Part shown: positions 30,101-33,100 of the stretch, in pieces
How positions within the stretch are numbered: position 1 is the stretch's first letter
How the letters are laid out: each line of letters starts with the position of its first letter
Origin: Escherichia coli
GTDB lineage: Bacteria; Pseudomonadota; Gammaproteobacteria; Enterobacterales; Enterobacteriaceae
Length of the DNA: 64,000 nucleotides
Strand: one strand, 5' to 3'
Assembly: GCF_017348835.2 (NCBI RefSeq)
Contig: NZ_CP071375.1
Made by a program: the position numbers

Positions 30101-33100
30101 GGAAACAAGAAAAACTGTCAGAACAAGTGCAAATGCTGTATTCATTGCCAGCATCCTTTTTGTATCGGACGTAAACGGGCCAACATTGAAAGAATGCATA
30201 TTTTATTTAATAGCTCCCGTTCGTGTTTTCTCTTGTTAATGGCATCTTCAGTAAATACAGGGTTACTGATAGTGACACCAATTTCAAAACAACCTTCAGA
30301 CGTATTAACGTTTGGTAATAACGTTTTCATTATCGCGCCCTCAACAATGAGTTTTGTGATGCGGTGCCTGGTGCCTCCAGGTGACGTTAACCAGTTAACA
30401 ACTAACGCCGGATACAGAGAATCCAACCATAACACTGTTTTTGGTTTTAACTGTTCCGCGTGCGCTTAGCCGCATTCACCGCATCACAAAATTCACTTTA
30501 AAAAGGGCGGCAGAGCAGTCACGGAGTAAAACTGATACCGCCAAACGTCACCAGAAAATTGATAACAGAGGGCGTTGCAGCGGGGTTGTCACTTAAGCGT
30601 ATGGTCAACCTGACAACCCGGTGTCCTCAACGGGGGAAGGAATAACCCCGCCATACTTACCGCCGCGCCATTTCGCGGATTGCCACAACCAGAAGCGCAC
30701 GGTCGAAGAAATTTAACGACAAGACTTATATGCAAAGGGATCTCGCCGTGCGCTTTCGTGTTATGCCCTGACTTTTCAGGGTAAATTAACCTGTGGAAAC
30801 CTGTTTTTACTGGCGCTAATCAGTTAGCGTTTCTGGCTAACCAGCGATGCGCGGCAGCTTCGGTTTTAAACGTTTTACTTTTGGTATACGTCATCGCGGT
30901 AAACGTGCCGTCCTGATTGGGAAACACGCCACATACCAGAGATTCGTTGTTGCCAAGCTCGATAGTATCCATGCTGACCTCATTTCCCCTTAACGCTGGG
31001 GTAGCGGAACTAAAAACCTGCTGCGCTGTTATACAAAGTGTTCCCGCCGTCATGTTCATACGCCTCGGGCTGGCTACTTAATCCCTGACCACAGCCGGGT
31101 AACTCTAGGTATTGCCCTGTATTGTGTGGGACGGGATGGGTTGGTATGGGAAAACTATAGGAAATGCCTAATTGCTTGTCAATAGGCCATGCCTAATGAT
31201 TTGGGTGCGACCTAATAGGTGATGGTTTGTGGGAGAGATAGTAGGAGTTAACTAACGGGAACTAGGAATTTCCCGTCGGACCATATAAGTTTAAGTTCCT
31301 GTCTTGGTGATGTTCTGGCTTTTCCGTTTTGATTCTTGATTTTTCAGATAGTTAGCTACCTTCATTTCCATTGCGGCAATGTAGGCGCGAACGTCATGAT
31401 CAACCCAACTAGGCTCCGTAGCATTTCCAGATAAGAGGAAAGCCACAATTGCTCTTTTTTCATCAGAGGCGGCTTGATAAAGGCTGTTTATGTCTAAAAG
31501 TTCACTTTTTGTATCTGAAGTGGATGGGGTTGGTATGGGGTATTCGTTAAGCCCCCAATGCTCTGGACCAACCACATCAGAAAAGAAACGCCATAGTTCT
31601 GGAAGTTTGTCTTTACTTATCGAACCTTTCTTAATCCAGTCATGGATTGATGGTGGTTGGACTTTGAAATGACGTGCGATTTCCGCCTTTGATTTGACGG
31701 CTCCTGATGCAATTTTTTTGTTAATGGCCTGCTCTATCGCTCGGCCTAAGTCTTTACCACTAAGCATTGCTTAATAGTCTCCTATGCGCATCGCGTTAGG
31801 CAATCCCTACTCTCGAAGCGTTAGGCATAGCCTATTGACAATCGCATTAGGCTAAGCCTAATATTATTGTGTGTTTTTTGGAGTTCATTCGATGAAAAAA
31901 GATAACTATTCATTCAAACGAGCTTGTGCTGTTGTCGGTGGGCAATCAGCAATGGCTAGGCTTTTAGGTGTATCTCCTCCAAGCGTAAATCAATGGATCA
32001 AAGGTGTACGTCAGTTGCCTGCTGAGAGATGTCCTGCGATTGAACGAGCAACAAAAGGTGGTGTCCTGTGTGAAGAACTTCGTCCTGATGTTGATTGGAC
32101 ATACTTACGACGCTCGTCATGTTATTCGCAGAATATGTCGATGAAGCAACCAAATGACGAAAACGATCATACCCGAAGCATCAAGAGGCAAATGATTCAT
32201 GAAAATCAAACATGAGCACATCCGCATGGCGATGAATGCCTGGGCATATCCTGATGGTGAGAAAGTTCCGGCAGCTGGAATAACCCAGGCTTATTTTGAG
32301 TTGGGTATGACGTTCCCAGAACTGTATGACGACAGCCATCCGGAAGCCCTGGCTCGCAATACCCAGAAAATTTTCCGCTGGGTAGAGAAAGACACCCCTG
32401 ATGCAGTTGAAAAAATTCAGGCGTTGTTACCAGCGATCGAAAAGGCAATGCCACCTTTGCTGGTGGCCAGAATGCGCAGCCACAGTTCAGCTTATTTTCG
32501 GGAGCTGGTGGAGACGCGGGAGCGACTGGTGAGAGACGCTGATGATTTTGTCGCAGTGGCAATCGCCGGTTTCAATCAGATGAACCGTGGTGGCCCGGCA
32601 GGAAATGCTGTGGCAGTGCATTGAGTGATAATAGCCATATCGAATCGCTTCCGGCAACTCGTGAGTAAAAAGATTCGGTATCAGAAGAGGTGAGTATGGC
32701 TAACGCCTGGCTCAGATTATGGCATGACATGCCAAATGACCCTAAGTGGCGAACAATTGCCAGGGTGTCAGGGCAGCCAATTGCAACAGTGATGGCAGTG
32801 TATATCCACCTCCTGGTGAGCGCGTCACGAAATGTCACGCGAGGTCACATTGATGTCACGACAGAAGATTTGGCAAGTGCGCTCGACGTGACAGAAGAGG
32901 TAATTGATTCAATTTTGCAGACGATGCAGGGGCGGGTACTTGATGGTGATTTAATCACTGGATGGGAAAAACGCCAGGTGCTTAAAGAGGACAACGGCAA
33001 TATTTCGCAAACCGCAAAATCTCCTGCAGAGCGCAAGAGGGCGCAGCGAGAGAGGGAAAGAAAGCGGGAACAAAATGGCGATTGTCACGGCGCGTCACGA

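Follow-up and report, generated by a model that had tools for sequence, protein, structure and literature searches.

The DNA analysed here, a 64-kb window of the Escherichia coli contig NZ_CP071375.1, contains a prophage next to potC that carries terminase, capsid and tail genes and looks complete. Within it, an open reading frame on the minus strand (racR, 31291-31767) encodes a 158-aa prophage repressor. Divergent from it on the plus strand lie a ydaS-like gene (31892-32215) for a Cro-type regulator, 85% identical to K-12 YdaS and matching Pfam YdaS_toxin (4e-30) and P22_Cro (1e-8), and a ydaT-like gene (32199-32624) for a CII-type regulator (Pfam YdaT_toxin, 7.5e-10). On the other side of racR a leftward operon begins on the minus strand with a DUF1391 (ydaF-like) gene and the DicF small RNA (30505-31059; Pfam DUF1391 and Rfam DicF), the Rfam match to DicF covering 30505-30556 with 76.7 bits. 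Further left, down to about 25971, follow dicB, ydfD, a 3'-5' exonuclease gene, xis and int, as annotated in strain RM8385, where this region is near-identical.

The divergent pair had been likened to racR with ydaS/ydaT in a sequence-only reading of this DNA, and the identities to the K-12 proteins together with the NCBIfam and Pfam matches bear this out. The repressor is 92% identical to K-12 RacR (b1356) over all 158 residues and scores 246.8 bits against the NCBIfam RacR equivalog NF049929 (cut-off 200), which by sequence identifies it as a true RacR orthologue. Its N-terminal helix-turn-helix domain (approximately residues 1-73) hardly varies among homologues and is followed by a linker and a C-terminal oligomerisation domain. 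A Pfam search returned no match for RacR and hence no S24 peptidase domain. Some relatives have this N-terminal domain joined to an S24 domain, with which the RacR C-terminal domain shows no alignment. Judged by these comparisons, RacR does not belong to the SOS-cleavable LexA/cI class defined by a C-terminal S24 self-cleavage domain, so RecA-mediated self-cleavage would not be expected. Searching its sequence against solved structures gave only insignificant matches (E-values of at least 0.6). The K-12 protein is octameric in solution by size exclusion (PMC11014345), and its loss is lethal, as the same reading had stated for K-12, with the lethality lifted by removing ydaS and ydaT (PMC5700373, PMC11879457). 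Deletion of kilR gave no rescue of a racR deletion (PMC5700373), and therefore de-repression of the leftward promoter PL is not what makes racR essential in K-12.

To characterize the repeats around this gene, we searched for exact GCCTAA/TTAGGC hexamers on both strands of the whole window. Although the hexamer is under-represented elsewhere in the window (13 found versus 23 expected), 7 of the 13 copies fall within 31166-31861: GCCTAA at 31166, 31191 and 31744 on the plus strand, TTAGGC at 31796, 31821 and 31847, and a further copy at 31856. The number expected in 721 bp is 0.07 by the density found outside this region or 0.26 from dinucleotide shuffles, giving Poisson probabilities of 1e-12 to 1e-8. 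The hexamers are halves of 15-bp palindromes, TTAGGC-N3-GCCTAA, arranged in two groups that flank the repressor gene. The count thus agrees with the earlier claim of at least seven motif copies in two groups on either side of a racR-like gene; the extended form GCCTAAT, which that claim had included, occurs in only four of the seven, and one copy is a lone GCCTAA half-site (31744-31749, plus strand) inside the racR coding sequence. One additional half-site deeper into racR is also described in K-12 (PMC9638921). All three palindromes in the window with at most one mismatch, and five of the six with at most two, are at the racR region. The remaining two-mismatch palindrome, at 16587, lies outside the prophage and was taken as chance.

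The right-hand group overlaps PR (PydaST; 31835-31864, plus strand), a TTGACA-18 bp-TAATAT promoter found in the promoter scan with 10 of 12 consensus bases, upstream of ydaS-ydaT and the rightward early genes. In K-12, where primer extension and mutagenesis located the promoter, the hexamers are the same (PMC9638921, PMC11879457). OR1, the perfect palindrome TTAGGCTAAGCCTAA (31847-31861), sits within the PR spacer and overlaps the -10 hexamer; its K-12 counterpart TTAGGCGTCGCCTAA, named O1, is protected at the lowest RacR concentration (PMC9638921). Its half-sites are invariant in 58 of 59 E. coli alleles, and its centre is variable. The palindrome followed by a T-rich stretch also produced a terminator-like match at 31846-31862, which lies inside PR and is not a terminator. 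OR2, TTAGGCATAGCCTAT (31821-31835), aligned to K-12, ends on the first T of the PR -35 hexamer and so covers one base of TTGACA (31835-31840), upholding the proposal that the repeats overlap the -35 element of the cro-like gene. OR3, TTAGGCAATCCCTAC (31796-31810, two mismatches), is located in the racR promoter region, with the racR start about 29-43 bp further downstream; its sequence is identical in K-12, and there this region is protected by RacR at higher concentration (PMC9638921). OR4, CTAAGCATTGCTTAA (31760-31774), a TTAAGC-type variant with three mismatches, spans the racR ATG (CAT at 31765-31767 on the plus strand). OR4 shows no variation among the 59 alleles, and distant homologues have TTAGGCAATGCTTAG at the equivalent position. 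An operator overlapping the racR ATG is described in K-12 (PMC9638921), and the site is likely to mediate autorepression on the leaderless racR mRNA.

The right side thus carries four strong sites, one of them over the racR start codon, and they match the K-12 RacR operators half-site by half-site. For the K-12 intergenic region, with its 'GCCTAA and its inverse TTAGGC', RacR is reported to form three complexes in gel shifts, to bind by ChIP-qPCR and to repress gfp (PMC5700373), and a DNase I footprint yielded the consensus (T/A)TAGGC-n3-GCCTA(T/A) (PMC9638921). Because the half-sites are identical and the protein is 92% identical to that of K-12, we infer that RacR binds the right-hand sites and represses ydaST in this allele as well. 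A YdaT-box, ATGATTCATGAAAATCAA, read from the sequence at 32192-32209 over the ydaT-like start codon, is identical to the K-12 box footprinted previously (PMC11879457). The leaderless racR promoter has the -10 hexamer GAGACT here versus GAGAAT in K-12, and the YdaT-dependent reverse promoter has the -35 hexamer CTGACG versus TTGACG, so the quantitative behaviour of the switch may differ from that of K-12.

The promoter scan of 30700-32300 revealed only two promoter-like sites, PL and PR, which are mirror images of each other and are each overlapped by two palindromes in the same register. The predicted PL (31154-31182, minus strand) has the form TTGACA-17 bp-TATAGT, with 11 of 12 consensus bases and a predicted leftward start near 31147. 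Predicted OL1, minus-strand TTAGGCATTTCCTAT (31157-31171), lies within the PL spacer and overlaps the -10 hexamer in the position that OR1 occupies in PR; one of its 12 half-site columns is variable among the 59 alleles. Predicted OL2, minus-strand TTAGGCATGGCCTAT (31182-31196), shares its last base with the first T in the -35 of PL, and here one of 12 half-site columns and all three centre columns are variable. A 26-nt inverted repeat, 88% complementary, joins OL2 with the OR2/-35 region. The earlier reading had begun the region at 31160, a boundary that excludes the PL -10 hexamer (31154-31159) as well as the initial three bases of the leftmost palindrome (31157). A third left operator at 31201-31215, minus-strand TTAGGTCGCACCCAA, part of a conserved ACCTAATAGGT palindrome, is doubtful because it has three mismatches, stands at an odd spacing of 19 bp from OL2, conserves only its TTAGGT half and has no clear equivalent in distant relatives. 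The operators therefore number three plus the one over the ATG on the right, and two good ones plus this three-mismatch candidate on the left.

To ask how the two groups are constrained, we compared 59 distinct E. coli alleles. Only 6 of 72 half-site columns are variable (pi 0.012), against 10 of 18 N3 centre columns (pi 0.12), 29 of 52 linker columns (pi 0.17) and 66 of 158 racR third codon positions (pi 0.08). A Fisher test of half-sites versus centres and linkers gave P = 7e-10, a value that overstates independence since the alleles are related to one another. The OL sites are constrained as much as the OR sites. Across alleles, the C-rich leader of PL seems to co-vary with the codons of the racR linker; linkage within 400 bp and function account for this equally well. 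K-12 and phage vB_EcoS-683R6 have identical half-sites on both sides with different N3 centres, and the PL cassette is present in both as well as in distant relatives. Among 120 viral contigs with the cassette, 99 have the divergent pair, and all 99 encode both the N- and the C-terminal domain of RacR. Homologues 56-64% identical, of which those named by NCBI come from Mixta, Yersinia, Klebsiella and Morganella, have three sites in the repressor-cro intergenic region and also a two-site TTGACA cassette downstream of the repressor. The same arrangement of three intergenic sites and a downstream two-site TTGACA cassette accompanies a repressor fused to an S24 peptidase, whose N-terminal domain is 86% identical. 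In a Salmonella relative no left cassette was found within 3 kb. The OL-OR distance is 689-692 bp in all 59 E. coli alleles and 641 to 1969 bp in relatives, where cargo genes are inserted between the two; the helical phasing of OL and OR was computed and is uninformative for loops of such size.

Taken together, these patterns make it very likely that the locus is the immunity (lysis/lysogeny) switch of a Rac-type lambdoid prophage, in which RacR at the palindromes blocks both early promoters. RacR dimers would bind the 15-bp TTAGGC-N3-GCCTAA palindromes through the N-terminal helix-turn-helix domain, on a 45-bp promoter-operator cassette that is duplicated in mirror orientation on either side of racR. 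Per cassette, one operator adjoins the TTGACA -35 element and the other occupies the spacer and reaches into the -10. The right copy, PR with OR1-OR2, would drive ydaS (Cro-like), ydaT (CII-like) and the replication genes, and the left copy, PL with OL1-OL2, faces DUF1391, DicF, dicB, ydfD, the exonuclease gene, xis and int. With RacR on both cassettes, RNA polymerase would be barred from both early promoters and lysogeny maintained, and OR3 and OR4 (at the racR ATG), on the racR promoters and leaderless start, would provide autoregulation. The description of the two groups as OL and OR, as first proposed, thus stands on different footings for its two halves: the right group matches the published K-12 RacR operators, and the left group is assigned as OL on sequence and comparative evidence, namely promoter overlap in the PR geometry, half-site conservation and recurrence in relatives. 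For the left side we infer RacR occupancy of OL1 and OL2, repression of PL, and cooperation of the two sides across 690 bp.

Several other origins for these repeats can be weighed against the same observations. Chance, which has the shortness of the motif and nothing else in its favour, is refuted by the hexamer and palindrome counts and the allele conservation, and we regard it as practically negligible in view of the Poisson values, the under-representation of the hexamer and the exact register of the sites with two promoters. The palindromes might also be mainly targets of the Cro-like YdaS or the CII-like YdaT, with RacR acting elsewhere; Cro uses the same operators as the repressor in lambdoid switches, YdaS autorepression is known in K-12 (PMC9638921), and YdaT leaves a footprint over PydaST in the K-12 intergenic region (PMC11879457). 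We consider this very improbable, since the K-12 RacR footprints and gel shifts coincide with the repeats (PMC5700373, PMC9638921), the defined YdaT box has a different sequence (ATGATT-N6-AATCAA), and the sites track the RacR N-terminal domain even where the C-terminal domain is exchanged for an S24 peptidase. Shared use of the sites by YdaS is compatible with the RacR explanation. Slightly more improbable still is that the left cluster is a relic without function, left by a duplication or by a mosaic recombination junction in which part of PR/OR was copied. In favour of this, the two cassettes nearly mirror each other, as the 26-nt inverted repeat indicates, and lambdoid immunity regions are mosaic. 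Against it, the half-sites and promoter hexamers of the left copy are specifically under selection, in contrast to its variable N3 centres and linker, and the cassette is kept in the relatives 56-64% identical, where the flanks have fully diverged.

The more balanced question is what RacR does on the left cassette. We tentatively propose, as a possibility somewhat short of an even chance, that the cassette is a real second RacR operator and that the octamer consists of two tetramers that join OL to OR by looping out about 0.7 kb of DNA, rather than of four dimers on the intergenic region. The competing account, to which we give nearly an even chance, is that OL acts only locally: RacR at OL1/OL2 would repress PL, and the octamer would sit on the four right-hand sites with no OL-OR loop. 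The published model places the octamer on four right-hand sites, four such sites exist here too, and the range of 641-1969 bp in relatives indicates that a fixed geometry is not required. Against purely local action, the arrangement matches those of lambda, where an octamer bridges OL and OR, and of CP-933P, where PaaR2 octamerises and regulates PL with OL sites (PMC8630535); the spacing of 689-692 bp held in the 59 alleles points the same way, although it may merely reflect the fixed length of racR. If the bridging octamer is correct, a lambda-like long-range switch would have been built independently on an unrelated, non-S24 oligomerisation domain, and DicF, dicB, xis and int (kilR and recET in K-12) would be under direct RacR control.

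The switch, its repressor, the right-hand sites and the palindromic motif are already established experimentally in K-12 (PMC5700373, PMC9638921), and in this respect the finding mainly confirms that a textbook-like switch can be recognised from raw sequence. What is added is the left promoter-operator cassette, which seems to be undescribed: literature searches found no description of a Rac leftward promoter or operator, an older one being possible, and a search for genome-wide RacR binding (ChIP-exo, SELEX, ChIP-seq) found nothing relevant. Expression of the C protein, which interferes with RacR, raises the leftward operon genes ydaF, ydaG, kilR, ydaE and racC 40-70-fold (PMC11014345), and in PMC5917428 the rac recombination genes are cited as being zygotically induced. 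The cassette offers a concrete predicted site for RacR control of this operon of cell-division inhibitors, recombination and excision genes, as well as an alternative interpretation of the published RacR octamer. More broadly, the RacR DNA-binding domain and its operators move as one module paired with different C-terminal domains (RacR-type or S24 peptidase), and such module swapping bears on how prophages of the same immunity come to differ in induction.

Comparison with known systems places the locus closest to the racR-ydaS-ydaT region of K-12 Rac (b1356-b1358), with which it shares orthologous genes, gene order, operator half-sites, the PydaST TTGACA/TAATAT hexamers, the operator over the racR ATG and the YdaT-box. 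The N3 centres and linkers differ, and so does the leftward operon, which holds DicF, dicB and the 3'-5' exonuclease gene here and ydaG, sieB, kilR, racC and recET in K-12 Rac, a 23-kb remnant in contrast to the seemingly complete prophage of the window. As in lambda cI/cro, the repressor gene stands between two divergent early promoters that are each overlapped by repressor sites, with the strongest site over the lytic promoter, an autoregulatory site over the leaderless start of the repressor, and a repressor octamer. The centre-to-centre spacing of adjacent operators is 25-26 bp here and 23-24 bp in lambda. Unlike in lambda, the RacR operator is a 6-3-6 palindrome, unrelated in sequence, the RacR C-terminal domain is non-S24, the OL-OR distance is 0.69 kb versus about 2.4 kb, four right-hand and two strong left-hand sites are present, and no N gene is evident next to PL.

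The CP-933P prophage of E. coli O157:H7 (paaR2-paaA2-parE2 / ydaS-ydaT) likewise has a lambda-like switch with a non-S24 octamerising repressor and YdaS/YdaT partners. Its repressor mRNA is leaderless too, and a PL with OL1-3 has been described on the downstream side of the repressor operon (PMC8630535). Its operators are 18-bp palindromes with the consensus GTTTAGTAA, its repressor is another protein, co-transcribed with a toxin-antitoxin pair, and its PL/OL is reporter-tested, whereas the RacR-side PL/OL described here is predicted. Finally, the dicA/dicC-dicBF region of Qin in K-12 also has a repressor-controlled early operon with DicF and dicB and a DUF1391 (ydfA-like) gene at its head; there the operon is under DicA, whereas here the same cargo lies behind a predicted RacR-type PL.

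An exact search for the hexamers GCCTAA and TTAGGC returned 13 copies in the window, seven of them within 31166-31861, which bears out the sequence-only reading of at least seven clustered TTAGGC/GCCTAAT copies. The hexamer is rarer than chance in the window as a whole (13 observed versus 23 expected from shuffles), and therefore 0.07-0.26 copies are expected in the 721-bp stretch; the Poisson probability of the cluster in this stretch is 1e-12 to 1e-8. The hexamers are the half-sites of 15-bp palindromes, TTAGGC-N3-GCCTAA, where N3 is the 3-nt centre. Five of the six window matches with at most two mismatches, and all three with at most one mismatch, fall inside the immunity region at 31150-31870.

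The right-hand operators are OR1 (31847-31861, TTAGGCTAAGCCTAA, a perfect palindrome), OR2 (31821-31835, TTAGGCATAGCCTAT), OR3 (31796-31810, TTAGGCAATCCCTAC) and OR4 (31760-31774, CTAAGCATTGCTTAA), the last of which covers the start codon of the repressor gene racR, and a lone half-site lies at 31744. On the left, we predicted OL1 (31157-31171) and OL2 (31182-31196); a third site, at 31201-31215, is doubtful. The centres of neighbouring sites are 25-26 bp apart, and OL1 is 690 bp from OR1. A consensus promoter scan of 30700-32300 gave exactly two matches: the rightward early promoter PR (31835-31864, plus strand, TTGACA-18 bp-TAATAT) and a predicted leftward promoter, PL (31182-31154, minus strand, TTGACA-17 bp-TATAGT). 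In both, one palindrome shares its final base with the -35 hexamer, as the first T of TTGACA, an overlap already noticed at the ttgaca element of the cro-like gene, and the second occupies the spacer and reaches into the -10 hexamer. The two cassettes, each a promoter with two palindromes, are mirror images and show up as an inverted repeat of 26 nt that is 88% complementary.

Several other features surround the left cassette. Just outside OL2, at 31205-31225, lies a conserved 11-nt perfect palindrome, ACCTAATAGGT, which consists of two RacR-like half-sites in everted orientation and is identical in the window, K-12 and phage vB_EcoS-683R6. The 13-nt sequence GGGTTGGTATGGG is repeated exactly, in direct orientation, at 31138-31150 and 31527-31539. 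Read on the minus strand, the predicted PL transcript begins with a C-rich stretch (CCCATACCAACCCATCCCGTCCCACAC) that is very similar to racR codons 76-82 (CCCATACCAACCCCATCC), and the two differ between alleles in parallel, which linkage may explain; this leader is C-rich and G-poor, like Rho-loading sites. Directly after the racR stop, a hairpin at 31256-31280 (ACGGGAA...TTCCCGT) is changed on both stem sides in K-12 (ACGGAA...TTCCGT) and may act as a 3'-end structure or terminator of racR, with no clear T-run after the stem.

The repressor gene racR (31291-31767, minus strand) encodes a 158-aa ORF that is 92% identical to K-12 RacR and scores above the NCBIfam RacR equivalog cut-off (246.8 bits versus 200); it has no Pfam domain match and thus no S24 peptidase domain. 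Divergent from it are a ydaS-like gene (31892-32215, plus strand; Pfam YdaS_toxin and P22_Cro; 85% identical to K-12 YdaS) and a ydaT-like gene (32199-32624, plus strand), so that the proposed resemblance to racR with ydaS/ydaT holds. The YdaT-box ATGATTCATGAAAATCAA, defined in a 2025 NAR study (PMC11879457), is unchanged at 32192-32209. With its match to the repressor equivalog, its ydaS/ydaT partners, the operator consensus and the YdaT-box, the locus belongs to the Rac-type immunity switches, as the sequence-only reading had suggested. Across the 1.9-kb immunity region, identity to E. coli O103 strain RM8385 and related genomes is 99.8%, and the annotation there lists racR, an HTH protein and a YdaT-family protein; 529 of 5426 complete E. 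coli genomes match at least 80% of the region.

PL points towards a DUF1391 gene and the DicF small RNA (30505-30556, minus strand; Rfam RF00039, 76.7 bits), with dicB, ydfD, an exonuclease gene, xis and int farther left and the int end of the prophage adjoining potC. Since DicF lies upstream of dicB and ydfD, the DicF/DicB cell-division inhibitors would belong to the operon faced by a RacR-type PL. The exonuclease gene (27389-29860, minus strand) encodes an 823-aa 3'-5' exonuclease with a C-terminal Rv2179c-like 3'-5' exoribonuclease domain, intact here and annotated as frameshifted in the near-identical prophage of RM8385. Rightward follow replication genes, a Q-type antiterminator, tRNAs, lysis genes, terminase, capsid and tail genes, and the prophage therefore looks complete. 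In ORF 32690-34519, the TGA stop of the RM8385 ydaU-like gene is GGA at 33764-33766 (T-to-G within a G run), so that this replication gene and the DnaC/IstB-like ydaV-like gene are joined in frame as a single ORF of 609 aa; the fusion may be genuine, or it may reflect a sequencing error in the homopolymer. Within 37170-37344, 40752-41004 and 41774-42028, the right-hand part also carries a hok-type gene with its sok antitoxin RNA, tRNA-Met and tRNA-Arg after the Q-type antiterminator, and the sRNAs STnc100 and AgvB (anti-GcvB) directly preceding a SASA-family esterase gene. In Stx phages this is where stx lies; this prophage has no stx gene.

OL1, OL2 and PL are the same in K-12 and phage vB_EcoS-683R6. 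We aligned 59 distinct immunity regions out of 80 sequences (77 of the 80 viral loci, the window, K-12 and this phage). Only 6 of 72 half-site columns vary (mean pi 0.012), with one variable column of 12 in each of OL1, OL2, OR1 and OR2, against 10 of 18 N3-centre columns (0.12), 29 of 52 linker columns (0.17) and 66 of 158 racR third codon positions (0.08). For half-sites versus centres and linkers, Fisher P = 7e-10 across the 59 alleles is only indicative because the sequences are related, yet the contrast is between column classes of one alignment.

RacR residues 1-73 are nearly invariant in homologues down to 45% overall identity, and the remainder diverges. Natural chimeras join this N-terminal domain to an S24 (LexA/cI-type) peptidase domain, either directly or via a long linker: P0101, P0102, P0114 and five 342-366-aa proteins (chimera loci L089, L091, L109, L168, L181 and L202). 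P0102, whose N-terminal domain is 86% identical to that of RacR, and the five long-linker proteins have the same TTAGGC-N3-GCCTAA cassette at their loci (L089 for P0102); judged by this sequence pairing, the operator therefore tracks the N-terminal helix-turn-helix domain, not the oligomerisation domain. The chimeras suggest prophages that share one immunity specificity and differ in induction route.

Homologues 56-64% identical, those named by NCBI being from Mixta, Yersinia, Klebsiella and Morganella, share the layout, with three sites between the repressor and cro genes and, downstream of the repressor gene, a TTGACA cassette with two sites. OR1 and this cassette are separated by 641-706 bp, except at the Klebsiella locus, which has an inserted cargo gene and a spacing of about 2.0 kb (1,969 bp). 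No such cassette lies within 3 kb in one locus from Salmonella. A strict cassette pattern matched 120 viral contigs, 99 of them with a divergent cassette pair (85 spaced 600-700 bp, 14 at about 1.9 kb), and each of these 99 codes for a protein that contains both domains of RacR. Relatives carry cargo genes that separate the repressor gene from the left cassette or simply follow the repressor (L088, L089, L085), and these include an HSDR_N-domain protein (Klebsiella), small ORFs and a PLDc_2/NgoFVII-like nuclease (Salmonella); given their location at the rexAB position of lambda, they are possible defence genes.

In K-12, RacR forms three complexes with DNA in gel shifts, binds in vivo by ChIP-qPCR and represses a reporter, and racR is undeletable unless ydaS and the intergenic region are also removed (Krishnamurthi et al., PMC5700373). 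A 2022 NAR study (PMC9638921) footprinted RacR on the intergenic region (consensus (T/A)TAGGC-n3-GCCTA(T/A)), placed one operator over the racR ATG, and mapped PydaST, the K-12 counterpart of PR (TTGACA/TAATAT), and three racR promoters, one leaderless. A 2023 NAR study (PMC11014345) reported a RacR octamer, which it assigned to four intergenic inverted repeats, called the RacR regulon, ydaFG included, uncharacterised, and cited an earlier observation that ydaF, ydaG, kilR, ydaE and racC go up 40-70-fold with expression of C protein, which interferes with RacR. Half-sites are identical between the window and K-12 at every right-hand operator, and the right half of our finding is therefore this known, experimentally supported system. 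The RacR papers that we read, the older Rac kil gene paper not among them, say nothing of operators beyond the 3' end of racR, of a promoter directed leftward or of DNA looping. The finding is largely already known, and the predicted left cassette (PL/OL1/OL2) is a modest, testable addition.

RacR dimers at OR1/OR2 and OL1/OL2 would exclude RNA polymerase from PR and PL, and racR would be autoregulated via OR3 and OR4, which overlap its promoters and leaderless start. The OR steps have been demonstrated experimentally in K-12 (PMC5700373, PMC9638921); we infer that RacR also binds OL and represses PL, and likewise any cooperation of OL with OR. A RacR-operated switch at OR and OL is very probably the overall explanation, and bridging of OL and OR by a RacR octamer is a tentative idea, to which we give somewhat less than an even chance.

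The OL/OR arrangement would work much as in lambda, although RacR does not belong to the S24-type repressors. Compared with K-12 Rac, N3 centres and linkers differ, the -10 of the leaderless racR promoter is GAGACT instead of GAGAAT, and the -35 of the reverse promoter inside ydaS is CTGACG instead of TTGACG, small differences that may change quantities, not logic. In the Qin prophage DicF/DicB are under DicA, whereas here they lie in the operon faced by the predicted RacR-type PL. In the related, distinct CP-933P switch, PL and OL have been identified and tested (PMC8630535).
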